In this document: positions 5,091 through 34,116 of the stretch, piece after piece
How positions within the stretch are numbered: the stretch's first letter is position 1
Layout of the letters: the number at the start of each line of letters is the position of its first letter
From: Acidobacteriota bacterium
Lineage (GTDB): Bacteria > Acidobacteriota > Terriglobia > Terriglobales > Acidobacteriaceae
NCBI GenBank assembly: GCA_018268775.1
Contig: JAFDVV010000019.1
Coordinates: forward strand, 156,483 to 220,482
DNA: 64,000 nt
Direction of reading: 5' to 3'
Notes under the pieces: generated by a model
Databases searched by the model: none
Seen by the model: only the letters and a program-made list of their open reading frames with translations
What the model was told of the DNA's origin: nothing
Translations under genes and position numbers: made by a program

Positions 5091-5118
5091 TTGTACCGTC
5101 TAAGACGCATAGTATACT
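5091..5118 (+). promoter_or_regulatory. Candidate sigma70-type promoter upstream of the PGT operon
   Basis: TTGTAC (5091-5096), 16-nt spacer, TATACT (5113-5118), in the ~580-bp divergent intergenic region. Pattern match only. Confidence 0.2.
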
Positions 5119-5468
5119 TCAAGCCAAAACGGCTGACGATTTTTTGCCGGACGGAGCATGAGCACGGTTACATCTCAGGCCAGCTTTGGTTCTCAGTTTT
5201 ATTGCAGAAAGGGCCTAGACATATCCCACGAACGCAGTACAGCGTATTCCTCTGAAAAAAGGTACCTTGGAGGGGTTCGTTGGGAGGATGCGTGAACCAG
5301 AAGCACGTGCCGGTTTGTGATGGAGGCTCGCAGAAGGGGAACTACGTGGGCGCCACAAAACTGCATGTCGATTTCGGACGAAAGTCTCTGGTAGATCAGT
5401 TGTATCGAGGATATGGCGTTCCTGGATACGCTGGCGGGCGTTTTCGCACGTTTAAGGCCCATCTCAAG

Positions 5469-6101: not shown

Positions 6102-6106
6102 CTCCC

Positions 6107-9071: not shown

Positions 9072-9560
9072 TCACTTGTCTTCAAGGGCGACATGTTTGC
9101 GGATGGTCATGCGATTGTGATGTTGATCCGATGTCAGGGCGATTGAGTCGACGATCTGCCTGACAATCTGCAACCCATGGCCTCGCATGGGCCAGTCTTC
9201 ATTAGGCTCTTCCAGAAGCGCAGGTTTGCCTTCAAGGCGATAACGCTCGCTCTCCGGGAAGGGCGGGGCCTTGTCGTTCAGGTCGATCTGGACCTCTGAA
9301 CCGCTCACATGGACCTTGACTTCGATCGGTTTGTCTTCCACGCCGCGGTACCCATGCTCAAGCGTGTTGTTGATGATCTCCGTAACAGCCAGCTCGAGAG
9401 AGAAGATGTCAGATTCGACGACGCCAAGATAGCTCAGGACTCCAGACAGCGCCGCCCGTACCAGACTGATCTGATTCAGTTGGCTGTCGATGCAGAACGA
9501 AATGGAATGGCTCATCTGGTCTTGCAAGACTGGCTCCCGTAGCAGAGATAACGTGATCAT
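9072..9560 (-). CDS. Anti-sigma regulatory Ser/Thr kinase (RsbW/SpoIIAB-like HATPase)
   Basis: 162 aa with an N-box (ELAVTEIINNTLEHGY) and a G-box-like segment (MRGHGLQIVRQIVDS). Confidence 0.7.
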   Translation of the reverse strand: MITLSLLREPVLQDQMSHSISFCIDSQLNQISLVRAALSGVLSYLGVVESDIFSLELAVTEIINNTLEHGYRGVEDKPIEVKVHVSGSEVQIDLNDKAPPFPESERYRLEGKPALLEEPNEDWPMRGHGLQIVRQIVDSIALTSDQHHNRMTIRKHVALEDK

Positions 9561-9581
9561 TTTGATGTCCCGATTACCAAA

Positions 9582-10936: not shown

Positions 10937-12358
10937 TTGGTTATTGAGGACGCCTTGCGACCATTTGAAGTTGCACTGACGATTGCCTTGGCTTTGACCG
11001 CCCTGATCGATCTGGCTGCCGTCAACCGAAGGGCCGGGTCTTTCCTCCGATCGCTTAGCGTGGCGCTGCTTGCCATTCACCTGGTTTATGAAGGCGGTCA
11101 CTGGCAGATGTTGCCGGTATACCTTGCGATCCTTGTGCTGATCTTTACATGGAGGAGGTCCGAGACCGGAGCCTGGAGATGGATGGCATCGGGACTGGTC
11201 TGCATTCTCTGCGCGCTCGGCGGAGTATTGTCCTATGCGATCCCGATGTTCTCCCTCCCTAAACCCACCGGGCCGTATCCCGTTGGCACCTGTGTGATTT
11301 ATATGCGCGATGACAGCCGGAAGGAAGATGCGGGGACGGACCGGGGCCGTAGCCGGGAGTTGATGGTCCAGATTTGGTATCCGGCGGCACCTTCAAAGAA
11401 CCATCTGGCTCCTTACCGGCGGTGGGCCGAGAGCAGGCTGAAAAATTCATATCAAAGTGTCTTGTGGACGAACTCCCGCGAAGATGCCCCAGTGGAATCG
11501 CACAGTGGGCCGTTTCCATTGGTTCTCTTCGGTCATGGATGGGGAGCGACGCGCATCTCGGACACGTTTCTGGCGGAGGACCTGGCCAGTCATGGTTATG
11601 TTGTTGTGTCGACCGACCATCCTTACAACTCAGCGCGCGTGGCGTTTCCCGACGGCCGGGTGATCGATGGAATAGACAATTCGCCCATCATCGATCTGGG
11701 GACTGAGCCGGCCGACAGGACCGAAGAGCTTTGGAACATGGAACTGGAGAAGTGGACGGCGGACCAGTTCTTTGTTTTGAACTCGCTTCAGGCAGCAAAT
11801 CTCGATCCGAAGAGCGTCTGGTACGGGCACCTGAACACAGACATCGTGGGAGCATTAGGACACTCCTTCGGAGGATCGGCGGCGCTGCGCATATGCAGCC
11901 TCGATCCAAGGGTCAGGTCGGCTATCAATATGGATGGCTGGACGTTCGATGGGGTCCGCGACCGGAAGAAGGGGAAGCCCATCATGTATATGTACGAGGT
12001 GAGCACGGATTCACAGCATGTTCTGGTGCACTCCCCCATTCCCGCAGAGCGGGTGAATGCCGAACTGGACGCTCTGGACGATAAGAACGTGCTGGACAAC
12101 CTGAAGGAGTACGGCGGATACAAGTTGACAATCGCAGGGGCCATGCATGCCGACTTTACCGACCAGCCCATGGTCTCGCCGTTCCACAGGATCACTCATA
12201 CGGGGCCGATCAAACCGGCACGAATGCAACTGATCGTTCGAGACTATGCGCTCGCCTTTTTCAATAAAACGCTGAGGGGGCAGAGTTCGCCATTACTGGA
12301 TTCCGGCGACACAAGCCCCTTCGGCGAAGTGCATTTTCAAGAGTGGTCCGCGCAGTAG
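10937..12358 (+). CDS. Membrane-anchored alpha/beta hydrolase (PAF-acetylhydrolase/lipase-like)
   Basis: Three or four N-terminal TM helices, then a hydrolase domain with a GHSFGG nucleophile elbow. TTG start as listed. Confidence 0.6.
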   Translation: MVIEDALRPFEVALTIALALTALIDLAAVNRRAGSFLRSLSVALLAIHLVYEGGHWQMLPVYLAILVLIFTWRRSETGAWRWMASGLVCILCALGGVLSYAIPMFSLPKPTGPYPVGTCVIYMRDDSRKEDAGTDRGRSRELMVQIWYPAAPSKNHLAPYRRWAESRLKNSYQSVLWTNSREDAPVESHSGPFPLVLFGHGWGATRISDTFLAEDLASHGYVVVSTDHPYNSARVAFPDGRVIDGIDNSPIIDLGTEPADRTEELWNMELEKWTADQFFVLNSLQAANLDPKSVWYGHLNTDIVGALGHSFGGSAALRICSLDPRVRSAINMDGWTFDGVRDRKKGKPIMYMYEVSTDSQHVLVHSPIPAERVNAELDALDDKNVLDNLKEYGGYKLTIAGAMHADFTDQPMVSPFHRITHTGPIKPARMQLIVRDYALAFFNKTLRGQSSPLLDSGDTSPFGEVHFQEWSAQ

Positions 12359-12384: not shown

Positions 12385-15300
12385 TCACGACAGGCATTCC
12401 CGCAGGCTTCTGACGACGCGCGGCAGGTTCTCGTCCGAAAGAACCTGGAGGTGCGCGCCTGGAATCTCAAAGATGCGCACAGGCTGGGTTGAGAATTTGC
12501 TCCATCCCAGGTCTCTCGGCCCTTTTTCCCGCGAAGCCCTCAGCATTGTGATGACGCCATCGTAGGTTTTGGGAACGTAGTTGACCGCTGCGAAGGAGTT
12601 GATGTGATAAACGCTCCGAAGTCTTGAGGGGATCGGTATCTTTCTGGAAGCGGCAAAGGTGTAGTACGTCCGCAGGATGGTGCTCTTCACGCCATCAAAT
12701 ATCTCCATCGGCGTGCACGGGCGCAGACGATGAAAGAACGGGCTCCATACTGCCATGATCTGTCGCACGCCCTTTGCAACAGGGTGATTGTCCTCGCGGA
12801 TGGCATGTCGCCAGACCGGGGTGTCCAACATTCCCAGCATGTCGACTTTTTCGCCGGCGAGTTGAAGCTGGCGCGCCATCTCAAACGCGACAAAGCCGCC
12901 ATAGGAGTATCCGAGGAAGTTGTAAGGGCCGTTGGGCTGTACCTTTCTGACTTCCTGAACGTAGTAGGCTGCGAGGTCTTCAAGCGAGGTCAGGGGTGTG
13001 GCGTCGGGCTGTAGCGATTGCGCCTCAACGCCGTAGATCCGGTACTTCGATCCAAGGCTCTTTGCGAGGTCGTAGAAATTCAACACGTTTCCGCCGACGC
13101 CATGGACGACAAACAGGGGAGCGGATGTGCCGTCGGGCTGGACGGCGACAATCGACGAAGGCACCTGAGGCGTAAGCTGACCTCGGATGAGCGCGGAAAG
13201 CTCCGCGATGGTGGGGCAGTTGAATAGGGTCGCGAGGCCCAGTTTCAGAGAGTATTCCTTGTTGATCTTTGCGATCAATCGCGCGGCGACGAGAGAGCGC
13301 CCGCCAAGCACAAAGAAATTATCGTGCGGCCCAACGCGGTCGACATTCAAGGCCGATTGCCAAATAGCGGCCAGATCGGTAGAGAGCGAATCGTGAGGGA
13401 AATCTGCCGCTCCTACGATTGCCGCCCGCTCATGGGACACAGCCTGCGCAGGTTCGATTGCCAGGGGCCTGGCAACGTACGGAGGTGCAGGCAACTCGCC
13501 GATCTTCTGTTCCGGGGCTGTAACCATGACGTGAAGCAGCGTCTGGTAGTACTCCAGCCATGCCTGGATCGTCGATCGATCAAAGAGGTTGGCGTTGTAT
13601 TCAAGCTCCGCCCGAACGCCCTCTTTTCTTTCGATGACGGCAAGCTGCATCTCGAACGGCATACCTACACTTGTGGTGGGCTGTGGAGTAATTGTCAGCC
13701 CAGGAACTTCACGGGCTTGCAGAAAGGCGGTCTGGCAGAAGAAGTAGAACTGAAAGAGCGGACTCCTTCCAGCCACAGGATGGACGTTGAGCTTATCGAG
13801 AAGCACCTCGAAGGGTACTTCGGTATGTCCCAGGGCTTCGATAGTCTTGTCCCTGTTCGCGACGATGAGGTCGCGTATTGTCAGGTCGTCTCGTACCTGA
13901 AGCCGCAGCGCTACGGGGCCGGCGAAGGGGCCCATCAGCGGTTCTGTCTCACTCCGGCGATTGACGACCGGTGAGCCGACGACGAGGTCTTGCGCGATCG
14001 AAGCGCGTGCCAACAGGAGTGAGAAGCAGGTCAGCGATACGACGTAGAGCGTTGTATCGTTTGCCTGTGCCAACTGCTTGAGGGACTGCGTAAGCTCGCC
14101 CGGAAACAGAAGGCTCTCAAGGGAGCTGTTCGGAGTACCTTGCAGATGAGCGGGCCGGTCGGTAGGGAAGTTCAGCACTGGAAGGTCGCCGGAGAGAGAC
14201 CTGAGCCAGTAATCGAGATGGTGCTGCGTTGCCTCCGATGCGATTCCTTCCCGCTGCCAGACGGAGAAGTCGCCATATTGCAGGGCGAGAGGCTCAAAGC
14301 GGAAGGCGCGGTCTTTGCCGAGGTTCTCGTAGGCTGTCCATAACTCACGCTGAAAGACCTGGATAGACCAGGCATCGGCGATGACGTGATGAACACTCAG
14401 AACGAGGAGGTGTTCTTCTGGCGACAGGCGGCATAGCGAAGCCCGGAAGAGAGGCAGCGAGGATAGATCGAAGGGCTCCCGGAGCATCCGCTGCACGGTT
14501 GCAGCGAGCAAAGCCGCGCGTTCGGTTACGGGGGCCTCATCGATGTTGGCTTGTTCAAGGGCGAACGCTGAGCGGTCGTGGATGACCTGCATCAGCTCGC
14601 CGCCGATCTCGGAGAACGTCGTTCGCAGCGTCTCGTGGCGATCGATAACAAGGCGAAAGCTCTCTTCGAGAAGCGGAATGGAGAGTTTACCGCCAAGCCG
14701 AAGAGTAACCGGCATATGAAACGCCGGATTTTCGGGATCGACTTCAGAGAGCGTCCAGAAGCGTTCCTGCGCGAAGCTGGCGGGAATCGCCTCGGTGCCT
14801 TGCGCTTCTGCAATAGCGCTATCCGCGTTGCCCGAATCCGACGTTGAACAGGCTGCATCTCTCTTGAGGAGTGCTTCCGGGTTGTTTAGTGGAAGGTCGA
14901 CCAGCTTTGTGCTCGTGTCGAGCGCGATGCCGGCGAGAACCTCGTGAAAGTTCGTAAGGAGACCTTCGGCAGTCTCTTTCGAGTAGAGATCGGTCTTGTA
15001 CTCGAGCGAGAGGCGCCAGCCCACCTCGCGTTCGACGAGGAAAAAATTCAGGTCGTAAATCGCCCCTTGAGACTTCGACGGCAGCGTGGTCATGCGAGTG
15101 CCATCGAGTTCGAACTGGAATGGCCCACTGCGTCCGTACTCGCGCTGACAGACGAAGTTGATTCTGAAGAGGCCGGTTGGGTCGATGTCTCGCCCGGCGT
15201 AGTTGCGGACCACTGTTTCGAAGGGGGCGTCCTGATTGGCGAGTGCCTCCCACACACAGTCGCGGACCTTTGCGACGAGATCGCGGAAGGTCAACTCCCC

Positions 15301-16263
15301 CGACAGAGCGGAGCGGACGATGACCTGGTTGGTGAACTGACCGATGAGCGACTCGAATTCGACCCGCGTCCTGCCCGCAAGCGGTGTGCGAAGAGCTACG
15401 TCGCCGGAACCGGTATAGCGATGGAGCAGCGCCATGCAGGCCGCCATGGCGACAACGAAGAAGGTGGTGTTCTCGGTCTGGGCGATACTACGCAGTTGTT
15501 CCGTCAGATTGCGCGGCAGAAGCTGCGACACAATGTCGCTCGCAATGGATGGATCCGCTACATCAAAATCGTGAGCGACCTGTAGCTGCGCGCAGTCCGC
15601 GAGCTTGTTCTTCCAATAGGCAAGCTGGGCCTGGACCTCAGGTTGAGAGAGCATCTCCTGCTGCCAGATAACGTAATCGCCGTATTGGAAGGTAACGGGA
15701 TCCAGAGGAGATGGCTGGTGTTGTGCATGGGCTGTGTAGAGCTTTGCAAGCTCGTCCATCAAGACGCCAATCGACCATCCATCGCAGACGATCTGATGCA
15801 GCGTGAGCACAAGCATCGACTTCGCCGGTGTCAGATGTATGAGGACAACCCGAAACGGTGGAGCTTGCGTCAGGTTGAAGCCGGTCTGCGCCTCACGAAC
15901 ACAGATGTCGTCCAACTCGCCGGCCTGCTTGTCTTCTGGACGGCCACGCAGATCGACGACGTTGAATGCGAGATCGACGGTGGGCCTGACAAGCTGGACG
16001 GTCTCAGCGCCATTGGCCTGGAATGTCGTTCGAAGCGACTCGTGGCGCTGCACGATCTCTCGGAGAGCGCGCTCCAATAGCGCGTCGTCGATGACGCCTT
16101 CAAGGTTCATCCGGAATGCGCCGTTGAACCGGGAGTCCGCCGTGCCGTCAAGATTCACAGGCAGCATGGCTGTCTGACCCGGCGTCAGCGGAAACGCAAA
16201 GTATTCTTCGTCCGGATTGCCGGGCTCCGACGATGGATTGCGAACAGTCATCTCCGAGGTCAT
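12385..16263 (-). CDS. NRPS termination protein with domains C(HQxxxDG)-C-T-TE and no adenylation domain
   Basis: - C1 spans about aa 20-460, with FPLTPGQ at its N-terminus and LHQIVCDGWS.
- C2 spans about aa 493-920, with SFAQERFW and VHHVIADAWS.
- T domain Ser lies in FFVLGGRSL (about aa 990).
- TE has GYSYGG (about aa 1118-1122) and a C-terminal GAH.
- 4-nt overlap with the upstream gene. Confidence 0.9.
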   Translation of the reverse strand: MTSEMTVRNPSSEPGNPDEEYFAFPLTPGQTAMLPVNLDGTADSRFNGAFRMNLEGVIDDALLERALREIVQRHESLRTTFQANGAETVQLVRPTVDLAFNVVDLRGRPEDKQAGELDDICVREAQTGFNLTQAPPFRVVLIHLTPAKSMLVLTLHQIVCDGWSIGVLMDELAKLYTAHAQHQPSPLDPVTFQYGDYVIWQQEMLSQPEVQAQLAYWKNKLADCAQLQVAHDFDVADPSIASDIVSQLLPRNLTEQLRSIAQTENTTFFVVAMAACMALLHRYTGSGDVALRTPLAGRTRVEFESLIGQFTNQVIVRSALSGELTFRDLVAKVRDCVWEALANQDAPFETVVRNYAGRDIDPTGLFRINFVCQREYGRSGPFQFELDGTRMTTLPSKSQGAIYDLNFFLVEREVGWRLSLEYKTDLYSKETAEGLLTNFHEVLAGIALDTSTKLVDLPLNNPEALLKRDAACSTSDSGNADSAIAEAQGTEAIPASFAQERFWTLSEVDPENPAFHMPVTLRLGGKLSIPLLEESFRLVIDRHETLRTTFSEIGGELMQVIHDRSAFALEQANIDEAPVTERAALLAATVQRMLREPFDLSSLPLFRASLCRLSPEEHLLVLSVHHVIADAWSIQVFQRELWTAYENLGKDRAFRFEPLALQYGDFSVWQREGIASEATQHHLDYWLRSLSGDLPVLNFPTDRPAHLQGTPNSSLESLLFPGELTQSLKQLAQANDTTLYVVSLTCFSLLLARASIAQDLVVGSPVVNRRSETEPLMGPFAGPVALRLQVRDDLTIRDLIVANRDKTIEALGHTEVPFEVLLDKLNVHPVAGRSPLFQFYFFCQTAFLQAREVPGLTITPQPTTSVGMPFEMQLAVIERKEGVRAELEYNANLFDRSTIQAWLEYYQTLLHVMVTAPEQKIGELPAPPYVARPLAIEPAQAVSHERAAIVGAADFPHDSLSTDLAAIWQSALNVDRVGPHDNFFVLGGRSLVAARLIAKINKEYSLKLGLATLFNCPTIAELSALIRGQLTPQVPSSIVAVQPDGTSAPLFVVHGVGGNVLNFYDLAKSLGSKYRIYGVEAQSLQPDATPLTSLEDLAAYYVQEVRKVQPNGPYNFLGYSYGGFVAFEMARQLQLAGEKVDMLGMLDTPVWRHAIREDNHPVAKGVRQIMAVWSPFFHRLRPCTPMEIFDGVKSTILRTYYTFAASRKIPIPSRLRSVYHINSFAAVNYVPKTYDGVITMLRASREKGPRDLGWSKFSTQPVRIFEIPGAHLQVLSDENLPRVVRSLRECLS

Positions 16264-19200
16264 CGATTTCCGTTTCTTCCGGGATCGACCGGCTCAGGCT
16301 CACGCAGCACTTGCGGCTGGGTGATTCTGTATTTCGACCGTGAGACAGGGACCAAGGGGGCCTGTCTGGGCGCGGCCGCACCCTTTTCGATGTCCGCAAG
16401 TATGGCTGCGATATTGCGGTGCTGAAGTATCTGACGCGGACGGGCTTCAATTCCTGCCTGGTTGGCACGCGCCGCGATCTGGAAGACGTGGAGAGAGTCG
16501 CCGCCAAGCTCGAATATGTTGTCTTCTACCCCGACGCGCTCAAGGTGCAAGACATCGGCCCATATCTTCGCGAAGCTCTCCTCTTGCGAGGTGCGCGGGG
16601 CAACGTACTTTGAGTTCTGCGAGAGTGACGTCCAACTGGGAGCGGGAAGCGCTTTGCGGTCGATCTTTCCGTTCGCCGTCAGGGCAAAGGACGGCAGGCT
16701 GATAAACGCCGCGGGTACCATGTAGTCCGGCAGCCTGCCCAGAAGATAGCTGCGTAGATCACCGGCATCTGGCGCCGTATCGTGACGCGGAATGATGTAG
16801 GCCACCAGACGCTTGTCGCCGGGGACGTCTTCGCGCAGCAGTACGACGGCCTGATCGAGCGCCGGATGGGTCGAGAGTATGCTCTCAATCTCGCCAAGCT
16901 CGATGCGGAATCCGCGAAGTTTGATCTGGCCGTCGGCCCTGCCGAGGAACTCAAGTTCACCGTTTTTCAGGCGGCGAACCATGTCGCCGGTGCGGTAGAG
17001 CCGTGCTCCCGGCTTGCTGCTGAAAGGATCGGAAATAAACCGTGCGGCCGTCAGGTCGGGACGCTTGTAGTATCCCTTGGCTACACCTGCACCGCCAATG
17101 TAGAGCTCGCCGGGAACGCCAAGTGGAACGAGTTGCTGCAACGGGTCGAGCACGTAAAACTGAGTGTTGTCGATTGGCAGTCCAACCGGAACTGCGCTGC
17201 CCCGGTTGGTGATGCGATTGGCCGCCGACCAGATCGTCGTCTCCGTTGGCCCGTACATGTTCCAGAGTTTGATGCCGCAGTCGAGTATCTGATCGGCCAG
17301 GTCGCGAGGCATTGCCTCGCCGCCACACCATGCGGTGATCGCGGGCTCTCCCTTCCATCCCGCCGCAAGCAGTAGACGAAAGGTGATGGGAGTGGCCTGC
17401 ATGATGGTCGCATGCGAGTCGCGCAGCAGCTTCAACAGTTGAGTGCCGTCGCTCGCAACCGCGCGGCTTGCAAGGACCAGTTCCGCGCCGCTGACGAGAG
17501 GCAAATATATCTCAAGCGCGGCGATATCGAAGGAGATTGTTGTGACGGCAACCAGAGTGTCCTTTGCTGTAAGTCCTGGTGTCTTTGCCATGGAGTTCAG
17601 CAGGTTTACAGCGTTTGAGTGCGTGACCTCAACTCCCTTTGGACGCCCCGTCGAACCAGATGTGTAGATAACGTATGCGACCTGTGAAGGCACATAGTTC
17701 AAATTGAGGTTGCCTGGGTCTTCCAACTCGATCTCGGGCCAAAGCGCGTCCACCGATAGAACTCTGGAGTTTGCGGATGGAACGTCGCCGGCGATCGCGG
17801 CCTGGGTGAGAACGGTCGGATTGACGATGTCCTCAAAGACCATCTTCAGGCGCTCGGCAGGGAACGTTGGATCGAGAGGAACGTAGGTCGCGCCAGCTTT
17901 CCAGACCGCAAGCAGCGAGACGATCATCGCGACCGACCGCTCCATATAGATTCCCACGACGTCGCCAGTCTTGACGCCATGCGAGAGAAGGTAGCGGGCA
18001 AGCCGGTTGACCCTCTCGTTCAACTGGAGATAGCTCAGGGACTGGTCTTCGAACTGTAGTGCCGGGGCATGCGGCGTTCTGGCCGTCTGCTGCTCGAAGA
18101 GTTGGTGGACGCAAAGGTCTTCCGGGAACGAGGCCTCAGTCTGGTTGAACGCAAATAGCGCGAGGTCGTGCTCCTTGCCGGTGAGCAGGGGAAGACGCGC
18201 GAGAGGCTGCGATGCGTCGCCGGTAAGGCCATTCAACAGAGCTTCATAGCATTCCATCCATCGCGTTACGGTCTCCTTGTCGATGAGGTTTGTGTTGTAG
18301 TCAACGTGCAGTGTGAGTCCGTCGGATCCTTCCACCGCGTTGACGAAGAGGTCGAAGTTGACGAAGCTCTTGGGATTCGGTTCGATCTTCGTCTCAAGGT
18401 TTGCAAACTTCAGATCGCCGCCGATCTTCTCGAGATTGAATTGCACTTCGAGGAGAGGAAGACGGCTGGCGTCGCGCGGGATCGCGAGCTTACGTACCAG
18501 TCTGCCGAAGGTGTAGTTCTGATGGTCGTAGGCATCGAAGACAGTTTGGCGTACTTGATCGAAGAACTGCGCCGTTGAAATGCCCTCGGCAGGCAGCGTC
18601 CGCATAGGCACGAAGTTGACGCAGTGGCCGACCAGTGTCTTGTCTTCAACGAGCGACTGGCCGGCTGCCGGAACGCCGATGACGATATCGTCCTGGTTCG
18701 AGAGCCGCGACAGCAGAGCGGAGAAGGCGCTCAACAGTGTGGCGAAGAGCGTGCATTTCTGTTGTGCACCGGCCTTCTTGATCTCCTTCAGCGTTTGTAA
18801 GTCGATCTTCTTCGTGAACGTCGAGCCTTCAAAGCTCTTCATCGCAGGACGCGCATGATCGAGTGGAAGGTCGAGCAGTGGAGGCAGTATCTCGAATTTC
18901 TTCGTCCAGTAAGATTCGACTGCTGCGCCTTCGATGCTGGCGAAGTGTTTTTCCTGCGCCCTTGCATACTCGCTGAAGGGCATAAGTGGACCGAGTGCGG
19001 GAGAGGTTCCCGCAGAGCGCGCGGTGTAAGTCTTTGCCAATTCGTCGAGCAGGACGTTGATGCTCCAGCCATCGCAGACCGCGTGGTGCGCGGTAAACAC
19101 AAGAGCGTGACGTTGCGGCGCGAAGCGCAGCAGAGACATACGAACCAGAGGCCCCAGCTTCAGATCGAAGGGTTTGCGGGCATCTTCGGCAATGAAACGG

Positions 19201-22200
19201 TCGAACCTTTCCTTCTGCTGGCCTTCGGAAAGATCGGAAAGGTCGATGGACGAAAGATTGGCAGAGGCAGGTGCAGCAAAGTGCTGAATACCAGCGTTCT
19301 GGTCGAACGTTGCGCGCAGAGCTTCGTGGCGCGACAGGAGATCGGCAAGCGAATCGGTAAGAACCTTCCGGTCCAGTTCGCCCGTCATATGCAGCGTGAA
19401 GGATTCGTTGAAGCTGCAATTGGCCTCAGGAGATAGCTCGGCTGAGAGCAGGATCTCCATCTGCGATTCGGTGATTGGAGCGCTCTTTGCAGTCGACGAT
19501 TCGAAAACAGCGTCAGTCGCAGTGCCGGACGGCAAGGGTAGAAGATCGCCAGCCTGCATCTCCGCGATCGTCTCATGGAAGGCGCGGAAGACTTTTTCGA
19601 GGTCGGCGTCGCTATGTTCGGTCGTAAGGAAGCAGGGGAAGCCCTCGAGCAGGTAGATGCCCTTGGAGCGCAGGTGCGTGTAGAAGATGCTGCTGAAGCG
19701 ATAGTCGCTGGGGAAGGCAAAGTAGAAGAAGCTGGCGAAGGTCTCGATCCTGACCGGCAGCTCGTTCTGAGCAAAGAGGGAATTGAGCCGCGCGATCAGT
19801 TGTGCTGTTCGCTGCGTCAGGCGTTCCTGCAGTTGCGGACCCTGCTCCTTGAGATACTTCAGCACTGCGGCGCAGGCGGCCATCGCAAGCGGATGACGGA
19901 CGAAGGTCCCGGCGAAGAAGGTTACGCCAACCTCTGGGAAGGAGTCGTCGCCGTAGTGCCACATTCCTCCGTCGAGAGCATCCAGATACTTCGCTTTGCC
20001 TGCAAGGACGCCCATGGGCATGCCCCCGGCAAGAACCTTGCCGTAGGTGGCGAGATCGGCGTGGACCCCGAAGAGCGTCTGGCAGCCGCCGGGATGAGAG
20101 CGGAAGCCCGTGACGACTTCATCGAAGATGAGGCAGACGTCGGCTTGCTCCGTAATGCGGCGAATCTCGCGCAGAAATTCGACCGGCTGCAGGTTGGGAT
20201 GGCGGCTTTGCACCGGCTCGACAAGGACAGCGGCAAGCTCGCCGATGTGGGAGCGAATCCACTCGAGCGATTCAGCCGTGCCGTAGTCGAGCACGATCAT
20301 GTTCGAGACGGACTCGCGCGGAATGCCGGGAGCGATGGGGGCCGATTGTGGAACGCCCTGGCGCTTGAACCCTTTGACCAGCACCTCATCGAACATGCCG
20401 TGATAGTCGCCTGCGAAGAAGACGATCTTGCTCTTGCCTGAGATTGTCCTTGCGAGACGCATCGCGGCCATGACGGCCTCTGAACCGGTATTGCAGAACG
20501 TCGCTCGCTCATTGCCGGTCATCTCGCAGAGCGCTTTCGCGACCTCGCCAGCCAGGATCGTTTGCGGGCCAATCTCAAAGCCCTCGTGCAACTGCTTCGC
20601 GATGGCCTCTTCGACGAAGTCGGGCCTGTGGCCCAGCATGATGGGGCCAAAGCCGTTGAGGATATCGACATACTCGTTGCCGTCGAGGTCCCAGATGTGT
20701 GAGCCCTTGGAGCGGTTGGTGACGATCGGATAGATCAGTTCTTTCCACTGCGCGCGGAAACCGGCAACGACTCGCGGGTCGGCGAGATACTGACGGCTCT
20801 CCTGGGTCTTGCTCTTTGAAGTTCTGGTGCGGGTCGTGTAGGAATCCGTCAGATGCCGGATGTGGTCGAGTTGACGTTGGGTCAACTCACCGGAGACGTT
20901 CTTCTGCAGAGGTTTGAACGGGGTGTAGCCCTTCAACTCAACGTTGGCGGCATCTTTCGCTGGCGCGGATGCTTCGGGCTTCGGAGGCACTGCGGCTGGT
21001 ATTGGCGGTATGGCTTGAGGAGCCGCTCCAGCGCCTTGCAGGACAGCGACCTGCTGCGCAAAGAGCTGGTTCATCGCCTGAAGTTGATCTCTCATCAACT
21101 GTTCGAGGGCCGTGCCGGCACCTGGTGTTGTGCCATAGCTCTGCGCGGCCGGCTGTGTCACCGGCCTGACCGCGTTCATACCTGCGGAGTCTGGCGTTGT
21201 GTTCCCCACCGGGGCCTCCCCGGACAAAGCTGGGCCCTCAAACGATCCGGGCGGCAGTTGCGCATCAATATAGTCCGCGAGTGCAACCAATGTCGACTGA
21301 TCGCCCATCAGTTGCCGAAACGTGGTTTTGACGCCGAATTTACTCTGGAGCCCCTGAGATATCTGAGTCAAAAACAGGGAATCGAAGCCGAGTTCGAGGA
21401 AAGAGGCCTCCCGGTCGGAGTCAGCGACTGTCTGTCCGGAAAGCTCCTCGAAGATATCTGCAATCAGCCCGCGTAGATGCTCGTTGCGGGGCTTCGTGCC
21501 AATGGGTGCGGCCGTACTCATGGATAACATCTCCTCGGAAGTTGAATCGGCAACAGGTGCGGTGACCTGCACGGAGGCGGTTCCTCTATCTGGCGCCAAT
21601 GTGTTGCTGTCTGTCGTTGCTGTCAGTGAATCGCTGAACCAGAATCGTTTGCGATCGAATGGGTACGTAGGCATTGAGACGCGCAGGCGCCGTTCATCCT
21701 TATGGAACTGTTCCCATGCAGGTTGAACTCCGTAGGCCCAAAGCGCGCCCAGAGATTGCTGCATGACGAACGCCTCGCCATGGTTAGAGTTGCCGTCAGT
21801 CATAGATGAGACGATGACGCGGTTCGCCGATGGCGTCGTGTGCTGGCGGGCCAATGTAGCGAGTACACCGCCAGGGCCCACTTCCAGAAGCGCGGTATCT
21901 TCTGTCTTCAGAAGGAGAGTGATGGCCTGCGAGAAGCGGACAGAGTCCCTGACATGCCGCGTCCAATATGCGGGATCGGTAGCCTGCTCCGCGGTTATCC
22001 AGTCGCCGGTGACGCAGGACACATAGGGGAGCGAAGGGGCAGACAGGCGCACCTTCTCAACTTCCTTCTGGAAGGCGGGAAGGATTGGATCCATCATCGA
22101 TGAGTGGAATGCATGCGAGGTATAGAGCTTGCGATGAACCACTCCGCGAGCCGTCAGTTCCTCCTCCAGCTTTGCAATGGCGTTGGAGGGGCCGGAGACG

Positions 22201-24323
22201 ACGCACAGCGCCGGTGCGTTGATCGCCGCGATACTCAGACCGTGACTAAGGAGCGGTAGTGTATCTGCCTCGCTCATGCGAACGCTCAACATGTCTCCTT
22301 TGGGAAGGTCCTGCATCAGAGCGCCGCGAACGGCTACCAGGTGCAAGGCGTCTTCAAGTGAGAAGACTCCGGCAAGGCAGGCTGCGACAAACTCGCCGAT
22401 GCTGTGGCCTGTCATCGATCGAGGTTCGATGCCCCACGACATCCACAACTTCGCAAGAGAGTATTCGACTGCAAAGATCGCAGGCTGGGCGAAGTACGTC
22501 TGCGTCGTGTCGAAGTTGGCGGAGTTGTCGTCCTGAAACAGCGCCTCGCGCAAGTCAAGGCCGAGTTCGGAACGCAGCAGGGAAGCGCAGGTGTTGAAGG
22601 CGTCGCGATAGACCTGCTCCGTCCTGTAGAGCTCACGGCCCATATTGGCGTGTTGCGAGCCCTGGCCCGGGAATATGAAACTGACGCCCGGTTGTGCGGA
22701 TTCCCTCCTGCGATCAGCACGCGAAGTGAGGGGAGTGTTGAGTGCGGCGACGGCAGATTCGATGGAGTCCGCGGCTACGGCGCGGCGGTAGGGGAATGCC
22801 TTGCGTCCTAGTTGTAGCGTATAGGCAACATCGGCCAGCGAGATGTCTGGATACTGCTTTAGGAAACCGGCAAGGTTTGACGAGGCTCTATTCAATGCCT
22901 CCTGCGATCGCGCGGAAAGCGTCAGCAGTTGAACCCGGCGAGCTGGCGGTGCAGACTCCTGTGGTGGGGCCTCTTCCAGAATGAGGTGTGCATTGGTCCC
23001 GCCGACACCAAAGGCGCTCACTCCCGCACGGCGCGGCGAGCCGTTGTTCTCCCACCTTCCGCCCGTGGCCGTCACCTTGAAAGGGCTTGAGGCGAAGTCG
23101 AACTTCTCCGTCGCATGCTTGAAGTGAAGCGTTGGCGGAAACTGTCCATGTCTCACGACATGCGTCGCGTGAATCAGTCCTGTAACTCCGGCGGCGATGT
23201 CGAGGTGGCCGACGTTGGCCTTGGCCGTGCCGATAGTGCAGAACCCGGATTCGTCCGTACCGGCGCGGAATGCCTTCGTCAACGCTGCAAGTTCTATAGG
23301 GTCGCCTAGTGGGGTGGCAGTGCCATGGGCTTCGACGTACCCGATGCTTGCGGGATCGACTCCGGCAGCCTGCTGTGCCATTGCGATGACGCTGGCCTGA
23401 CCTTCGATACTTGGGGCCGTGTAGCCGATCTTGGTTGCACCGTCGTTGTTGGAGCCAAACCCGCGTATGACCGCGTAGATATGATCTCCATCGGAGATGG
23501 CGTCTTCAATCCGCTTTAGAAGGACGACGCCCACGCCGCTGCCGAAGACCGTACCCTGCGCATCGTTGTCAAACGGGCGGCAGTGCCCGTCGGCTGATCC
23601 CATGCCGCCTTCCTGATACATATAGCCGCGCTTCTGCGGCAGCGTGATGGAAACGCCGCCGGCGAGCATCATGTCGCTCTGGTAGGTGAGGAGACTCTGG
23701 CAGGCCTGGCAGATGGCAAGCAGCGAGGTCGAACACGCGGTCTGAATGGCATAGCTGGGGCCGCGCAGGTTGAACTTGTATGAGACACGGGTCGGCAGAA
23801 ACTCAGGCTGATTTCCCATCATGCTCTGGTAGTTGCCGATCTGGTAGTTCTCGATGAAATTTTGTGCGAACCCGGGTTGCGCGCAGAGCTGCGAGAGGAA
23901 ATAACTGCCGTAACTCGATCCGGCTACAACGCCGATCGAGCCGGTGTAGTCGAAGGGGTTGTAACCGGCATCTTCAAAGGTCTCCCAGCAGCACTCAAGA
24001 AAGAGCCGGTGCTGCGGGTCCATCTGCAATGCTTCCTTCGGAAGTATTCCGAAGAACTCTGCATCGAAGTTTTCAATGTCAGCCAGTACGGAACGTGAAC
24101 GGATGTAATTTGGTTCCCGTGCCTGCGCCTTGTTGCCCGCGAGCTCAAGCTCCTCAAAACTGAAGTGAGAGATGGCTTCGACACCCGCAAGCTGGTTCTT
24201 CCAGAACTCTGCCACACTGCTCGCGCCGGGGAAGCGGCCGGACATTCCGATGATGGCGATTCCGTCAAGGTTGTCCGTGGCTTGTGCAGGCTCGTGCTCG
24301 AGGTTGTTCTCGGGAGGTGTCAT
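16260..24323 (-). CDS. Hybrid PKS-NRPS with domains KS-AT-ACP-aminotransferase(class III, PLP)-C-A-T
   Basis: Approximate aa ranges:
- KS 21-450: TACSTS Cys197, EAHGTATPLGD, ANVGHLD.
- AT 547-860: GHSIGE, and HAFH indicating malonyl specificity.
- ACP about 950-1025: LGFDSL.
- AMT 1180-1590: GSEAVMAA, DEVVTGFR, TYGKVLAGG with the PLP Lys.
- C 1615-2045: HHAVCDGWS.
- A 2070-2560: YTSGSTGRPKG, NMYGPTE, GELYIGG, YRTGD.
- T about 2580-2650: LGGDSL. Confidence 0.92.
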   Translation of the reverse strand: MTPPENNLEHEPAQATDNLDGIAIIGMSGRFPGASSVAEFWKNQLAGVEAISHFSFEELELAGNKAQAREPNYIRSRSVLADIENFDAEFFGILPKEALQMDPQHRLFLECCWETFEDAGYNPFDYTGSIGVVAGSSYGSYFLSQLCAQPGFAQNFIENYQIGNYQSMMGNQPEFLPTRVSYKFNLRGPSYAIQTACSTSLLAICQACQSLLTYQSDMMLAGGVSITLPQKRGYMYQEGGMGSADGHCRPFDNDAQGTVFGSGVGVVLLKRIEDAISDGDHIYAVIRGFGSNNDGATKIGYTAPSIEGQASVIAMAQQAAGVDPASIGYVEAHGTATPLGDPIELAALTKAFRAGTDESGFCTIGTAKANVGHLDIAAGVTGLIHATHVVRHGQFPPTLHFKHATEKFDFASSPFKVTATGGRWENNGSPRRAGVSAFGVGGTNAHLILEEAPPQESAPPARRVQLLTLSARSQEALNRASSNLAGFLKQYPDISLADVAYTLQLGRKAFPYRRAVAADSIESAVAALNTPLTSRADRRRESAQPGVSFIFPGQGSQHANMGRELYRTEQVYRDAFNTCASLLRSELGLDLREALFQDDNSANFDTTQTYFAQPAIFAVEYSLAKLWMSWGIEPRSMTGHSIGEFVAACLAGVFSLEDALHLVAVRGALMQDLPKGDMLSVRMSEADTLPLLSHGLSIAAINAPALCVVSGPSNAIAKLEEELTARGVVHRKLYTSHAFHSSMMDPILPAFQKEVEKVRLSAPSLPYVSCVTGDWITAEQATDPAYWTRHVRDSVRFSQAITLLLKTEDTALLEVGPGGVLATLARQHTTPSANRVIVSSMTDGNSNHGEAFVMQQSLGALWAYGVQPAWEQFHKDERRLRVSMPTYPFDRKRFWFSDSLTATTDSNTLAPDRGTASVQVTAPVADSTSEEMLSMSTAAPIGTKPRNEHLRGLIADIFEELSGQTVADSDREASFLELGFDSLFLTQISQGLQSKFGVKTTFRQLMGDQSTLVALADYIDAQLPPGSFEGPALSGEAPVGNTTPDSAGMNAVRPVTQPAAQSYGTTPGAGTALEQLMRDQLQAMNQLFAQQVAVLQGAGAAPQAIPPIPAAVPPKPEASAPAKDAANVELKGYTPFKPLQKNVSGELTQRQLDHIRHLTDSYTTRTRTSKSKTQESRQYLADPRVVAGFRAQWKELIYPIVTNRSKGSHIWDLDGNEYVDILNGFGPIMLGHRPDFVEEAIAKQLHEGFEIGPQTILAGEVAKALCEMTGNERATFCNTGSEAVMAAMRLARTISGKSKIVFFAGDYHGMFDEVLVKGFKRQGVPQSAPIAPGIPRESVSNMIVLDYGTAESLEWIRSHIGELAAVLVEPVQSRHPNLQPVEFLREIRRITEQADVCLIFDEVVTGFRSHPGGCQTLFGVHADLATYGKVLAGGMPMGVLAGKAKYLDALDGGMWHYGDDSFPEVGVTFFAGTFVRHPLAMAACAAVLKYLKEQGPQLQERLTQRTAQLIARLNSLFAQNELPVRIETFASFFYFAFPSDYRFSSIFYTHLRSKGIYLLEGFPCFLTTEHSDADLEKVFRAFHETIAEMQAGDLLPLPSGTATDAVFESSTAKSAPITESQMEILLSAELSPEANCSFNESFTLHMTGELDRKVLTDSLADLLSRHEALRATFDQNAGIQHFAAPASANLSSIDLSDLSEGQQKERFDRFIAEDARKPFDLKLGPLVRMSLLRFAPQRHALVFTAHHAVCDGWSINVLLDELAKTYTARSAGTSPALGPLMPFSEYARAQEKHFASIEGAAVESYWTKKFEILPPLLDLPLDHARPAMKSFEGSTFTKKIDLQTLKEIKKAGAQQKCTLFATLLSAFSALLSRLSNQDDIVIGVPAAGQSLVEDKTLVGHCVNFVPMRTLPAEGISTAQFFDQVRQTVFDAYDHQNYTFGRLVRKLAIPRDASRLPLLEVQFNLEKIGGDLKFANLETKIEPNPKSFVNFDLFVNAVEGSDGLTLHVDYNTNLIDKETVTRWMECYEALLNGLTGDASQPLARLPLLTGKEHDLALFAFNQTEASFPEDLCVHQLFEQQTARTPHAPALQFEDQSLSYLQLNERVNRLARYLLSHGVKTGDVVGIYMERSVAMIVSLLAVWKAGATYVPLDPTFPAERLKMVFEDIVNPTVLTQAAIAGDVPSANSRVLSVDALWPEIELEDPGNLNLNYVPSQVAYVIYTSGSTGRPKGVEVTHSNAVNLLNSMAKTPGLTAKDTLVAVTTISFDIAALEIYLPLVSGAELVLASRAVASDGTQLLKLLRDSHATIMQATPITFRLLLAAGWKGEPAITAWCGGEAMPRDLADQILDCGIKLWNMYGPTETTIWSAANRITNRGSAVPVGLPIDNTQFYVLDPLQQLVPLGVPGELYIGGAGVAKGYYKRPDLTAARFISDPFSSKPGARLYRTGDMVRRLKNGELEFLGRADGQIKLRGFRIELGEIESILSTHPALDQAVVLLREDVPGDKRLVAYIIPRHDTAPDAGDLRSYLLGRLPDYMVPAAFISLPSFALTANGKIDRKALPAPSWTSLSQNSKYVAPRTSQEESFAKIWADVLHLERVGVEDNIFELGGDSLHVFQIAARANQAGIEARPRQILQHRNIAAILADIEKGAAAPRQAPLVPVSRSKYRITQPQVLREPEPVDPGRNGNR

Positions 24324-26263
24324 CGGGCCACGCCCTTCGTCGTACGTAGGCGGGCAAAGGCCTCACGCTGCCTGCGCGCCTGCTCCTGGGCCGCGGTGAG
24401 CGTCGCAGAAGGCCTGGCCGGTGAACCGCTTGTTTCGACAAGTTTGTCCGCGAGAGAACGAACCGTTGTGAACTCGAACATCCACGTCACAGGGATTGAG
24501 CGGTTGAGCTGCTCCTGAAGCTGTGACCTCACGGCGGCCAGAAGAATAGACGTGCCGCCGATGTCGAAGAAATTGTCGTCCAAACCTACCTGCGAGGCCT
24601 TCAATACGTCGCGCCAGACCTGAGCGATCCGGGCTTGCAATGGTGAACTGGACGTTGCTTGCCGCTCGTCTGCGGTGGCTGACGCGGAGCCGGTTGTTGG
24701 CTTTGGTAGCGCCGCGCGATCGACCTTGCCATTGCCAGTCAGCGGAATCGTCTCCATCTGTATATAGAAGGACGGCATCATCTGCGCTGGCAAACGCTGC
24801 GAGAGGAACCGGCTCATGTCACCAGCCGTGGGTTTGCCGCCTTCCGTGACGAAATAGGCCGCAAGCGCTTGCCGTCCGTCGTCGGTCGTGTGGCCGATGA
24901 CGCAGACCTGACGTACTCCTGGAAAATCGGAGATCGCCGCTTCGATCTCTCCAAGCTCGATGCGAAAGCCGTTGATCTTCACCTGGTTGTCGCCGCGTCC
25001 GAGATAGACAAGCTCGCCGTCGGGGCGCCGCCTGGCGAGGTCTCCAGAGCGATACATCTTCGCTCCGGGAGGGCCGAACGGGTCGGGTACAAAGCGTTCG
25101 GCCGTCAGTTCAGGCCGGTTGAGATATCCGTGGGCGACACCTCCTCCGCCCACGCATATCTCTCCGACCTCACCATCTGGAACCGGAAGAAGCTCCGCGT
25201 TCAGAAGGTGAATCTGTAAATCGGGGATTGGCACACCGATCAGGCTGTCCTGCTCGCCCTGTGTGTCCGCTTCGCGCACGATGCGATAGGTCACATGAAC
25301 CGTCGTCTCGGTGATGCCGTACATGTTGACGAGTTGCGGCTTGATGTCGCCATGTCGCCTGAACCAGTTGCGCAGTGAGTGGTATTGAAGCGCCTCACCG
25401 CCAAAGATCACGACGCGTAGCGAGAGCGGCAGCGCAGTTCCAGACTCCTCCAGTTGGTTGAGCAGTGAGAATGCAGAAGGGGTCTGATTCAGCACCGTCA
25501 CCTTTTGCTCGGAGAGCAGGGCGTAAAAGTCCTCTGGAGAGCGACTGGTGGCAAAGGGAACGATGACAAGTTTTCCGCCAGTGGTCAGTGGCCCCCATAT
25601 CTCCCACACGGAGAAGTCGAAGGCAAACGAATGAAACATGGTCCAGACGTCGGTTTCGTTGAAGTGAAACCACGTCTCCGTCTCGCTCAGCAGGCGGACG
25701 ACGTTATGGTGCGAGACCAGCACGCCCTTTGGCTTGCCTGTGGAACCCGATGTGAACATGACGTAGGCGAGGTCGTCGGCCTTCGGGCGTACTGGGAGAG
25801 GTTCCGGCACTATGGGGTCAAGCGAAGGCAGTTCGTCTGCAAGGATGATTTGCGATGCTGTCTTCTCAAGGATGGAGGCCAGTTTCCGATTCGTTATGAC
25901 GACCAGCGGCGTAGCATCTTCAAGCGTTTGTAGGACTCGCGCCGAGGGATACCCGGGGTCGATCGGCAGGTAGGCGCTTCCTGATTTGAGCACGCCAAGC
26001 ATGGCGGCAATCATCTCGATGGAGCGGTCAAGGTAGATGGCAACGATACCGCGTCGATCCCCCGAGGCTGCAACCAGGCGACGTGCCATTTGGTTGGAGG
26101 CGCGATCCAACTCGGAATAGGTCGCCTGCTGGGGCCCGCAGACGACGGCAACTCTATCCGCATGGCTCCGGGCTGCTTTTTCAAACAGTGAAACCAGAGA
26201 ATCGTCGACAATGCGGTTTCTGGAAGTCTCGTCTTCTATTGCATGTATTGCTCTTGTTGCCAT
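24320..26263 (-). CDS. Stand-alone NRPS A-T didomain (loading module), predicted Thr-activating
   Basis: FTSGSTGKPKG, FAFDFSVWE, NMYGITETTVH, YRSGDLA, NGKVDR; T-domain motif FFDIGGTSI. A hand-extracted 10-residue specificity code reads DFWNIGMVHK, which equals the canonical Thr code. Confidence 0.9.
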   Translation of the reverse strand: MATRAIHAIEDETSRNRIVDDSLVSLFEKAARSHADRVAVVCGPQQATYSELDRASNQMARRLVAASGDRRGIVAIYLDRSIEMIAAMLGVLKSGSAYLPIDPGYPSARVLQTLEDATPLVVITNRKLASILEKTASQIILADELPSLDPIVPEPLPVRPKADDLAYVMFTSGSTGKPKGVLVSHHNVVRLLSETETWFHFNETDVWTMFHSFAFDFSVWEIWGPLTTGGKLVIVPFATSRSPEDFYALLSEQKVTVLNQTPSAFSLLNQLEESGTALPLSLRVVIFGGEALQYHSLRNWFRRHGDIKPQLVNMYGITETTVHVTYRIVREADTQGEQDSLIGVPIPDLQIHLLNAELLPVPDGEVGEICVGGGGVAHGYLNRPELTAERFVPDPFGPPGAKMYRSGDLARRRPDGELVYLGRGDNQVKINGFRIELGEIEAAISDFPGVRQVCVIGHTTDDGRQALAAYFVTEGGKPTAGDMSRFLSQRLPAQMMPSFYIQMETIPLTGNGKVDRAALPKPTTGSASATADERQATSSSPLQARIAQVWRDVLKASQVGLDDNFFDIGGTSILLAAVRSQLQEQLNRSIPVTWMFEFTTVRSLADKLVETSGSPARPSATLTAAQEQARRQREAFARLRTTKGVAR

Positions 26264-26472
26264 AAATACGGTTTCCGGAATTGATTGAGGGGGCCCTTGG
26301 TTGATAGTGCCATGTTTCGAGTAACCAGGGCATAACTCTTGTGTTGTACGTGATTTATAGATGCCAAAGAGCTTGCCTGCAACAGGCGGGCGTGGCCTTG
26401 TCTATTGATCTTTAGCCTGCCCATTTTTTTGAATACCTGGGGAGCGTTTCACCCTGAATACTCCCGCGGGTG

Positions 26473-27423
26473 TCAGTGCTGGCCCTTTACGCCGCGAACG
26501 ACCTTTCCTGCCAGCTTTCGCATAGGAAGGATGGCATTCATCGCATTTGCCTTCAACGCGTCTGCTGCCGGGTGTTTTCCTGGCTCGGACGGGGCGATCC
26601 CAGCGCGCCGTATGTAGTGATTGAAGGCGCGTGTTCGTCCCAAAGACCGTGTCGACTCAGTTTCCAGAACGACCGAGTAAGAGATCGACTGCGAAGAACA
26701 GGTCTCGACCCAGTGCGGTGCGTTCTGTGGCTGGTGCAGCCCCTTTCCGGCTGAAAGTTGGAAGACGTGCTCCCGGGCTGGGTCGCGCCGGTTGACGTCC
26801 ACTTTGCCGATCTCGACGGAACTCTTGATGTAGAAAGGCTCCAGTTCCGCCTCCGTCACATTGGCAGGTGGATAGACGTGGTAGATCTTTTCGCCCGCAA
26901 TCTGGCAGAAGAAACCCACCTCGGGGTCGAAATGGATCGGAGTCGTTGTCTTTGCCGAGCTGACGAAGACGGAAGACTCAAGCCGCACGATCTTGTCGCC
27001 TCCAAATCCGCCCTTCGCCTCGCTGATCGATGCAAAAAGCGCGTCGATCAACTCGCGGAAGCCCGTATCGTACTTCTCCGGACGCTTGAGCAGGACGCGA
27101 TAAGGGGCTTGGTCGAGCAACGTCATCGCAACATGCGGGGCGTGTTGTCCATGAGGTACGGAGTTGAAGTCGGCATTCGCGGAGGGCGCGCTTGATGCGA
27201 CGAAGGCGTCTGCCGGATTCGCGAGGTACTTCTCGGCCAGGTTGCGCAGATAGTCGTAGGAGAATATCTCCAGGTCGCTCAGATTGTGAGCTGTCGCCAG
27301 TGGCTCGATATTGAATGTCTCGGCAAATGAGGGAGTCGCAAATCGCAATGCGGCTTCCCGTGGCGCAGAGGCCTTCGGCAGGGGAAGACCGGCTTGCGAA
27401 TGAACTGTTGTACTGGATGCCAT
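26473..27423 (-). CDS. Cupin/JmjC-like Fe(II)/2-oxoglutarate oxygenase candidate
   Basis: 316 aa. An H-x-D (TPIHFDPE) and a distal His (QNAPHWVE) are spaced as in JmjC/FIH-type cupins. First gene of the minus-strand NRPS-PKS gene string. Confidence 0.45.
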   Translation of the reverse strand: MASSTTVHSQAGLPLPKASAPREAALRFATPSFAETFNIEPLATAHNLSDLEIFSYDYLRNLAEKYLANPADAFVASSAPSANADFNSVPHGQHAPHVAMTLLDQAPYRVLLKRPEKYDTGFRELIDALFASISEAKGGFGGDKIVRLESSVFVSSAKTTTPIHFDPEVGFFCQIAGEKIYHVYPPANVTEAELEPFYIKSSVEIGKVDVNRRDPAREHVFQLSAGKGLHQPQNAPHWVETCSSQSISYSVVLETESTRSLGRTRAFNHYIRRAGIAPSEPGKHPAADALKANAMNAILPMRKLAGKVVRGVKGQH

Positions 27424-29106: not shown

Positions 29107-29222
29107 TCGTGTTGGAACCTTAGGAAGAACTCAGTGGCGAGGATTTCAATTGTCCGGTCAGAGCGCTTCACGAGAATACAGGAAGCGGTCAACGCTGGTC
29201 AGCAGTTGTACGGCATGTAGTC

Positions 29223-30350: not shown

Positions 30351-30360
30351 CCTTCCGGCT

Positions 30361-34110: not shown

Positions 34111-34116
34111 GCAACA

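Follow-up and report, generated by a model that had tools for sequence, protein, structure and literature searches.

Within a 64,000-nucleotide stretch of an Acidobacteriota genome (contig JAFDVV010000019.1, positions 156,483 to 220,482; hereafter the window), four genes at 12385-27423 encode an intact and conserved orphan assembly line that combines nonribosomal peptide synthetase (NRPS) and polyketide synthase (PKS) parts. The genes specify, in order, a cupin/JmjC-like oxygenase, a free-standing adenylation-carrier didomain (A1-T1), a megasynthase with the order KS-AT-ACP-AMT-C1-A2-T2 (ketosynthase, acyltransferase, acyl carrier protein, aminotransferase, condensation, adenylation and carrier domains) and a termination protein, C2*-C3-T3-TE, that ends in a thioesterase and lacks an adenylation domain. 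We consider it probable that the line is primed by Thr, extended by malonate, aminated and then elongated by Gly. The preliminary description of the cluster was essentially right; our analysis adds the Thr and Gly specificities, a condensation domain with an HQ motif, the family context, a further hydrolase gene and the finding that the cupin is accessory.

The listing of open reading frames (ORFs) places the four genes, all on the minus strand, at 26473-27423 (316 amino acids), 24320-26263 (647 amino acids), 16260-24323 (2687 amino acids) and 12385-16263 (1292 amino acids), in agreement with the coordinates first proposed. Both junctions between the megasynthase genes are indeed 4-nt overlaps, each reading CGATGAC with an ATGA stop/start. 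Pfam reproduced the proposed domain order exactly and NCBIfam agreed with it: Cupin_8/JmjC_2 in the first protein; AMP-binding and PP-binding in the second; ketoacyl-synt, Acyl_transf_1, PP-binding, Aminotran_3, Condensation, AMP-binding and PP-binding in the 2687-residue protein; and two Condensation domains, PP-binding and Thioesterase in the 1292-residue protein. The domain E-values range from 1e-15 to 1e-175, so chance is excluded. Ketoreductase (KR), dehydratase and enoylreductase domains were absent from the Pfam scan of the cluster proteins. The G+C content is 55-60%, and no frameshift or internal stop interrupts the 14 kb of cluster ORFs. MbtH, phosphopantetheinyl transferase (PPTase) and transporter genes had been reported as not visible, which holds for the ORFs of the 64-kb window; in some relatives the core is flanked by a gene for a PPTase, a type II TE or a transporter of the OPT or Wzx/MATE-like kind.

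In the megasynthase, the KS (23121-24260) carries its catalytic Cys in TACSTS (23724-23741), together with HGTAT and GHL motifs. The AT (21795-22679) has GHSIG at 22395-22409 and HAFH at 22104-22115, and we take the latter motif to mark a malonyl type. It is followed by the ACP (about 21264-21476, GFDSL), the AMT (19644-20729, with the Lys in TYGK at 20037-20048), C1 (18171-19484, HHAVCDG at 19068-19088), A2 (16665-18098) and T2 (16395-16571, GGDSL). The AMT aligns over its full length with the structure of the MycA aminotransferase (6kfm, E = 3.6e-135), with the TYGK lysine aligned, which bears out the earlier likening of this domain to the mycosubtilin/iturin type. The best matches of the KS include ketosynthases of hybrid NRPS/PKS lines, e.g., ClbC and ClbK, and it resembles those placed after NRPS modules. 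The specificity code of A2, read by motif anchoring, is DILQWGMIWK, close to the canonical Gly code DILQLG(L/M)IWK, and suggests a Gly-like specificity. This code follows the family variant: DILQWGMIWK in loci with two C domains in the termination protein (di-C loci) and DILQLGVIWK in loci with a single one.

The free-standing A1-T1 didomain (24320-26263, minus strand, 647 amino acids) was recognized by both Pfam and NCBIfam, and A1 (about 24725-26185), like A2, matches TIGR01733; the carrier T1 (about 24446-24631) bears its Ser in GGTSI at 24545-24559. We mapped the code positions on the GrsA-PheA fragment, for which the mapping returns the published DAWTIAAICK code, and read the A1 code as DFWNIGMVHK. 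This is the canonical Thr code. It is kept in 10 of the 11 family loci examined, and the A1 and A2 codes are conserved in di-C and single-C relatives alike. Together with the A-domain matches, the Thr code upholds the earlier view that the starter is an amino-acid didomain rather than a fatty-acyl ligase. The gene coupling points the same way, as the A-T and KS genes share an ATGA overlap in the window and their ORFs abut or overlap in most related loci; Thr as the PKS starter is thus supported by the A1 code, by the resemblance of the KS to NRPS-fed ketosynthases and by this coupling. The locus with the deviating code, L088 (10735-12609), has a Val-like A1 code, DAFWLGGTFK; it retains the cupin, and a CmlA_N/metallo-beta-lactamase-type gene lies close by.

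On this reading, A1 would load L-Thr onto T1, from which Thr would move to the KS and condense with malonyl-ACP to give 4-amino-5-hydroxy-3-oxohexanoyl-ACP. Since no KR is present, the beta-keto group would be left for the in-line AMT, whose action would yield a vicinal diamine, 3,4-diamino-5-hydroxyhexanoyl-ACP. C1 would then couple this diamino acyl unit to Gly on T2, and C3, a canonical C domain, would pass the chain to the residue on T3. T3 would be charged in trans, with the stand-alone A1 (Thr) and the adjacent A2 (Gly) as the most plausible loading domains, and the Ser-type TE would free the product by hydrolysis or by cyclisation onto a free amine or hydroxyl. The likely product is therefore written as (3,4-diamino-5-hydroxyhexanoyl)-Gly-X, possibly hydroxylated; the linear form would be C12H24N4O6 (about 320 Da) if X is Thr and C10H20N4O5 (about 276 Da) if X is Gly, with a further 16 Da upon hydroxylation. 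The composition of Thr, malonate, an amino group and Gly fits the small, polar, amino-acid-derived metabolite that had been suggested.

The termination protein (12385-16263, minus strand, 1292 amino acids) comprises C2 (about 14869-16191), C3 (13492-14790, HHVIADA at 14371-14391), T3 (13186-13374, GGRSL at 13291-13305) and the TE (12400-13119, GYSYG at 12898-12912, with the His in GAHLQ at 12445-12459). The line does end in an A-less protein with two C domains, as had been described, and both match LCL-type condensation domains rather than epimerisation domains. Among structures in the PDB, C2 matches the C domains of Txo1/2 and TycC6 (1e-54 to 1e-46) and C3 likewise matches LCL-type domains of Txo1/2 and TycC6 (1e-66). 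The epimerisation domain of TycA (2xhg) reaches 4.9e-13 against C2, compared with 1e-54 for the LCL type, and is not among the matches listed for C3, so an epimerisation function was rejected. An icosalide-like starter C domain was likewise rejected, because the CDA starter C (4jn3/5du9) reaches about 3.5e-13 against C2 and is absent among the C3 matches at E<=1e-10. The glycopeptide X domain (4tx2) matches C2 at 1.5e-36, more weakly than the LCL type at 1e-54.

An alignment of C1, C2 and C3 shows that C2 holds the only non-canonical catalytic motif in the cluster, HQIVCDG (15778-15798), in which the second His is replaced by Gln. Taken with the A-less T3 and with the missing PPTase, MbtH and exporter genes in the window, this could be seen as the mark of a broken line in a decaying or silent cluster. 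We regard such decay as highly improbable. The 14 kb run free of frameshifts and internal stops, every other catalytic motif is intact, and all family members have the A-less module, even the single-C variant, whose C motif is the canonical HHIICDG. Moreover, of 120 homologues about 60% show HQxxxDG and about 33% HHxxxDG, and C2 is as well conserved as C3, columns that are at least 80% conserved making up 33% of the former and 36% of the latter. The HQ motif is therefore a selected family trait rather than decay, and the loss of essential catalytic residues that the preliminary description had named as fatal to its case was not observed, the sole atypical motif being conserved in the family. 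This conservation suggests that C2 is functional, whatever its role; it may act in an atypical condensation or cyclisation, or as a docking platform for a hydroxylase. Certain C domains stay active without the second His (PMC10510592).

T3 lacks a cognate A domain in every family member, the single-C variant included, and no A domain other than A1 and A2 was found among the window ORFs; trans loading of T3 is therefore required. This requirement, together with a stand-alone, Thr-specific A-T next to an Fe/2-oxoglutarate (2OG)-type oxygenase, admits a syringomycin-like arrangement. In it, the Thr A-T and the Fe/2OG cupin would prepare a modified Thr for the A-less T3 and not, or not only, a PKS starter; the KS would be primed by an acyl group from primary metabolism, and the product would be iturin-like, a beta-amino acyl-Gly unit extended by the modified Thr. 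SyrB1/SyrB2 supply the A-less last module of SyrE in this manner, and the AMT is closest to that of MycA, whose substrate is a fatty beta-keto acyl chain. However, a fatty acyl-AMP ligase (FAAL), an acyl-loading ACP, a starter C and a SyrC-type shuttle were not found in the window, translational coupling ties the A-T gene to the KS gene here, with abutting or overlapping ORFs in most relatives, the KS groups with NRPS-fed hybrid ketosynthases, and C2 lies far from starter C domains (CDA-C1 at 3.5e-13 against LCL at 1e-54). We therefore judge this arrangement unlikely; Thr-T1 could nonetheless serve twice, as the starter and as the donor to T3.

The TE is the least conserved domain, with about 30% identity to distant members. 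Its nucleophile is Cys in 74 of 120 family members (GYCLG, GFCFF, GWCSH) and Ser in the clade of the window (>=49% identity). Cys-type thioesterases are associated with strained-ring release, as in obafluorin and sulfazecin, for which reason the release chemistry may vary between the Ser-TE and Cys-TE clades.

The cupin gene (26473-27423, minus strand, 316 amino acids) encodes a JmjC/Cupin_8 Fe(II)/2OG-type oxygenase, which scores above the cutoff of Pfam Cupin_8 (2.7e-8). The metal ligands lie in an HxD motif at 26926-26934 and, for the distal His, in PHWVE at 26704-26718; H164, D166, H237 and K179 are invariant in 40 homologues. The AlphaFold2 model has a pLDDT of 90.5, and its best Foldseek matches are NO66/MINA53/FIH/YxbC (E about 1e-11, TM about 0.5). 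The protein thus has the HxD...H triad, the 2OG-binding basic residue and the double-stranded beta-helix fold that define JmjC/Cupin_8 enzymes. Its nearest relative, with 93% identity, comes from an Acidobacteria metagenome-assembled genome (MAG) that shares both the cluster and its glycosyltransferase flank. Cupin_8 proteins have been proposed to hydroxylate NRPS-bound residues in the laxaphycin pathway (PMC7524897), and the cupin probably hydroxylates a carrier-bound residue here.

The cupin could instead be an unrelated housekeeping protein hydroxylase, in which case only the three synthetase genes, perhaps joined by the hydrolase described below, would form the real cluster. This fold is like that of ribosomal-protein and protein hydroxylases; homologues of about 52% identity in Pedosphaera and Methylocella lie beside lysyl-tRNA synthetase or ribonucleotide reductase genes, free of NRPS genes; the cupin is better conserved (93%) than the synthetases (77-82%); a gap of 209 nt separates it from the A-T gene; and the flanks visible in Granulicella aggregans, Tunturiibacter and Bryocella lack it. 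Against this, cupins of 64-93% identity keep their place beside the A-T gene although the outer flank varies, and in locus L088 the gene is kept directly upstream of A-T at 72% identity despite an entirely different outer flank. In addition, Acidisarcina and a gammaproteobacterial MAG have a second, distant Cupin_8 type in the equivalent position, 'Ca. Acidiferrales' has it close to the core, and a 56% homologue adjoins a different NRPS (locus L090). Overall, a cupin was seen at 6 of the 8 loci of di-C type and at none of the 5 with a single C, counts that rest on partly visible flanks and meet a counter-example in Granulicella aggregans. A housekeeping role remains a real but lesser prospect, and the cupin is probably a non-universal tailoring enzyme of the cluster. 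Its earlier description as a cluster gene thus stands insofar as it occurs at many family loci, although it is accessory and not found at all of them.

A scan for promoters and terminators around the cupin gave fewer matches than in shuffles. A 77-residue ORF between the cupin and A-T in L088 was considered as an MbtH-like protein and ruled out on translation. Locus L090 (218-7309) holds an NRPS of 1707 amino acids (C-A-T-TE), then two Cupin_8 genes, one of them the 56% homologue, and then DegT aminotransferase and glycosyltransferase genes, forming an NRPS/cupin/polysaccharide neighbourhood.

The termination protein has more than 120 full-length homologues at 38-77% identity, all with the identical C-C-T-TE architecture; their named sources include Granulicella aggregans and 'Ca. 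Acidiferrales'. A scan of species-representative genomes recovered the arrangement of the A-T gene with the 8-kb gene from Granulicella, Acidisarcina, Tunturiibacter, Bryocella and uncultured Acidobacteriaceae, as well as, in pieces, from one gammaproteobacterial MAG. Of the 80 loci in the A-T alignment scan, only about 10 belong to the family, most others being generic Thr-type A domains (Nostoc, Bacillus, actinomycetes). Members at 40-42% identity keep the order A-T / KS-AT-ACP-AMT-C-A-T / C-C-T-TE. Across Acidobacteriaceae and in many metagenomes the three-gene core is found again, which makes the cluster one of a conserved family and not a one-off. In the sister variant, T-TE is preceded by one canonical C (HHIICDG), whose sequence is slightly nearer to C3 than to C2. 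The loci of this variant, L010-L014 (about 19800-21900), come from Tunturiibacter, Bryocella and Granulicella MAGs, and in three of them a Wzx-like Polysacc_synt_3 gene lies directly upstream of A-T, overlapping it in Bryocella. The architecture had been called uncommon: no characterised equivalent was found in the searched literature, but the family is conserved, its homologues number more than 120, and a catalogue of 2013 already lists amino-acid-primed AMT modules.

Several points weigh against the Thr-primed line and its likely product. A2 departs from the canonical Gly code in one or two residues, and both codes were assigned by comparison with canonical codes rather than by a predictor. 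C2 lacks the second His of HHxxxDG, no PPTase was found among the window ORFs, and similarity among the carriers does not settle whether A1 or A2 loads T3, which is about equally similar to T1 and T2. As noted above, the cupin is absent from Granulicella aggregans and was not seen in the visible flanks of the single-C loci, and its homologues of about 52% identity in other phyla sit in housekeeping contexts. The free alpha-amine on the beta-keto intermediate could cyclise early to a tetramic acid, and no product of any family member was found in the searched literature.

A bolder interpretation can be offered, although we hold it to be improbable: the HQ-type C2 might be a new kind of C-fold platform that presents the carrier-bound chain to the JmjC-type (Cupin_8) hydroxylase, or might carry out a non-canonical second acylation, or a cyclisation, at the vicinal diamine. 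In that case the products of the family would be a class of diamino-acid peptides not seen before, with a membrane PAF-AH-like hydrolase as their processing enzyme and perhaps a tie to the exopolysaccharide or envelope loci that repeatedly house the cluster.

The hydrolase in question was overlooked in the preliminary description, which let four genes make up the cluster. The four minus-strand genes stand, with the cupin as an accessory, and a PAF-AH_p_II-like serine hydrolase at 10937-12358 on the plus strand (PF03403, 6e-19; 473 amino acids from a TTG start that is uncertain) is a probable fifth. It is convergent with the C-C-T-TE gene at a distance of 26 nt, and about four N-terminal hydrophobic helices precede its GHSFGG domain. 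Homologues with 36-51% identity lie beside synthetase genes in loci L009, L014, L089 and L091, in varying positions and orientations. Judging from these sequence contexts, the hydrolase is a probable cluster member acting in processing, release or immunity, and, being predicted to be membrane-anchored, it probably acts outside the cytoplasm to process the product or render it harmless.

Just past this gene, a minus-strand module at 9072-10790 encodes an RsbW-like anti-sigma kinase and a response regulator of the partner-switching type. The best match of the regulator is Pseudomonas RssB, its C-terminal part also matches the phosphatase SiaA, and a homologue flanks locus L089 as well. Exopolysaccharide-type genes surround the cluster (687-9066 and 27856-30969). 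They comprise ATP-grasp, GT2 and GT4 genes, fragments of polyprenyl sugar-phosphate transferase and a partial sugar-transferase/WecB-TagA fusion, as well as genes for a nucleotidyltransferase, GT4, GT2 and a hexapeptide acetyltransferase. The related loci L088, L091 and L092 likewise have polysaccharide, exosortase or Wzy genes in their flanks, and a functional link is putative.

Farther out, the window contains a Kdp potassium system with a split sensor (31505-39661). The KdpD N-terminal sensor with Usp (32965-34110) is encoded on the plus strand, as are KdpE, KdpA, KdpB and KdpC, and the KdpD-like histidine-kinase part lies on the minus strand at 31505-33004, overlapping the sensor gene by about 40 nt. 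At 43163-47082 on the minus strand, a CHAT-domain protein (879 amino acids) is translationally coupled to an S41 peptidase (427 amino acids), forming a caspase-like/peptidase pair. A copper/metal resistance island occupies 47315-56659 and 61914-63989; it includes a Cus-type pump of the resistance-nodulation-division (RND) class (AcrB family, HlyD/CusB with a YtkA domain, and OEP), a multicopper oxidase and, at the window edge, a second RND pump.

Acidobacteria are among the most abundant soil bacteria, and in surveys of their biosynthetic gene clusters very few NRPS/PKS products have been characterised, none like this cluster. The compact (about 16 kb), complete cluster with its three synthetase genes occurs in the cultured genera Granulicella, Tunturiibacter and Bryocella and is tractable for heterologous expression. 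It offers a test case for how A-less termination modules are loaded, for the function of a conserved C domain without the second His, and for whether JmjC/Cupin_8 enzymes truly hydroxylate carrier-bound substrates. Current understanding is not overturned; the line is a variant of a well-known assembly-line type and a good target for genome mining rather than a surprise to the specialist.

No characterised counterpart was found in the searched literature, a comparison that does not extend to MIBiG, and within that scope no characterised cluster of matching order, which the preliminary description had named as decisive against it, came to light. The closest known system is MycA/ItuA (AL-ACP-KS-AT-ACP-AMT-C-A-T), which shares the KS-AT-ACP-AMT-C-A-T block in equal order, a malonyl-type AT and the lack of a KR, so that the beta-keto group is aminated. 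In contrast, the window has no acyl-AMP ligase or loading ACP, and a separate Thr-specific A-T feeds the KS; one Gly module and an A-less C-C-T-TE follow downstream instead of a long lipopeptide line, and the host is an acidobacterium of the family Acidobacteriaceae or a near relative. Amino-acid-primed AMT modules whose products are not known were catalogued from genomes in 2013, including A-CP-KS-AT-CP-PLP in Pedobacter and A-CP-KS-AT-CP-PLP-C-CP-C-C-A-CP-C in Thiorhodococcus (PMC3870968). Compared by architecture alone, these also place an amino-acid A-CP before KS-AT-CP-AMT, and the Thiorhodococcus protein further has an A-less C-CP and tandem C domains; however, they come from other phyla, are each encoded as one fused protein and continue with different modules.

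The likeness to McyE of microcystin/nodularin is limited. There, the AMT module lies within a multi-module PKS chain that builds Adda, followed by C-A-T(-C) for D-Glu, whereas the window has a single PKS module with none upstream and a Gly-like A2. Syringomycin synthesis (SyrB1/SyrB2/SyrC/SyrE) employs a trans-loaded, A-less terminal C-T-TE module. The window shares with it a stand-alone Thr A-T next to a non-haem Fe/2OG-type enzyme, as well as termination by a module that is A-less, but the oxygenase here has a JmjC/Cupin_8 fold and is not a SyrB2-type halogenase, the A-T is coupled to the KS, and no SyrC/CmaE-type shuttle was found among the window ORFs. The laxaphycin/scytocyclamide pathway likewise has both an AMT at the end of a PKS module (LxaE) and Cupin_8/JmjC proteins (LxaF/G), for which the role is a proposed one; its cyanobacterial products are FAAL-primed lipopeptides of 11-12 residues (PMC7524897). 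Tandem C domains have a precedent in icosalide (PMC10510592). Finally, the glycopeptide X domain is, like C2, a C-fold with an altered His motif between a carrier and the next catalytic domain, often with a trans oxygenase nearby; nevertheless, C2 is nearer to LCL domains, about one third of the family keeps HH, and the partner here would be a JmjC enzyme instead of a P450.

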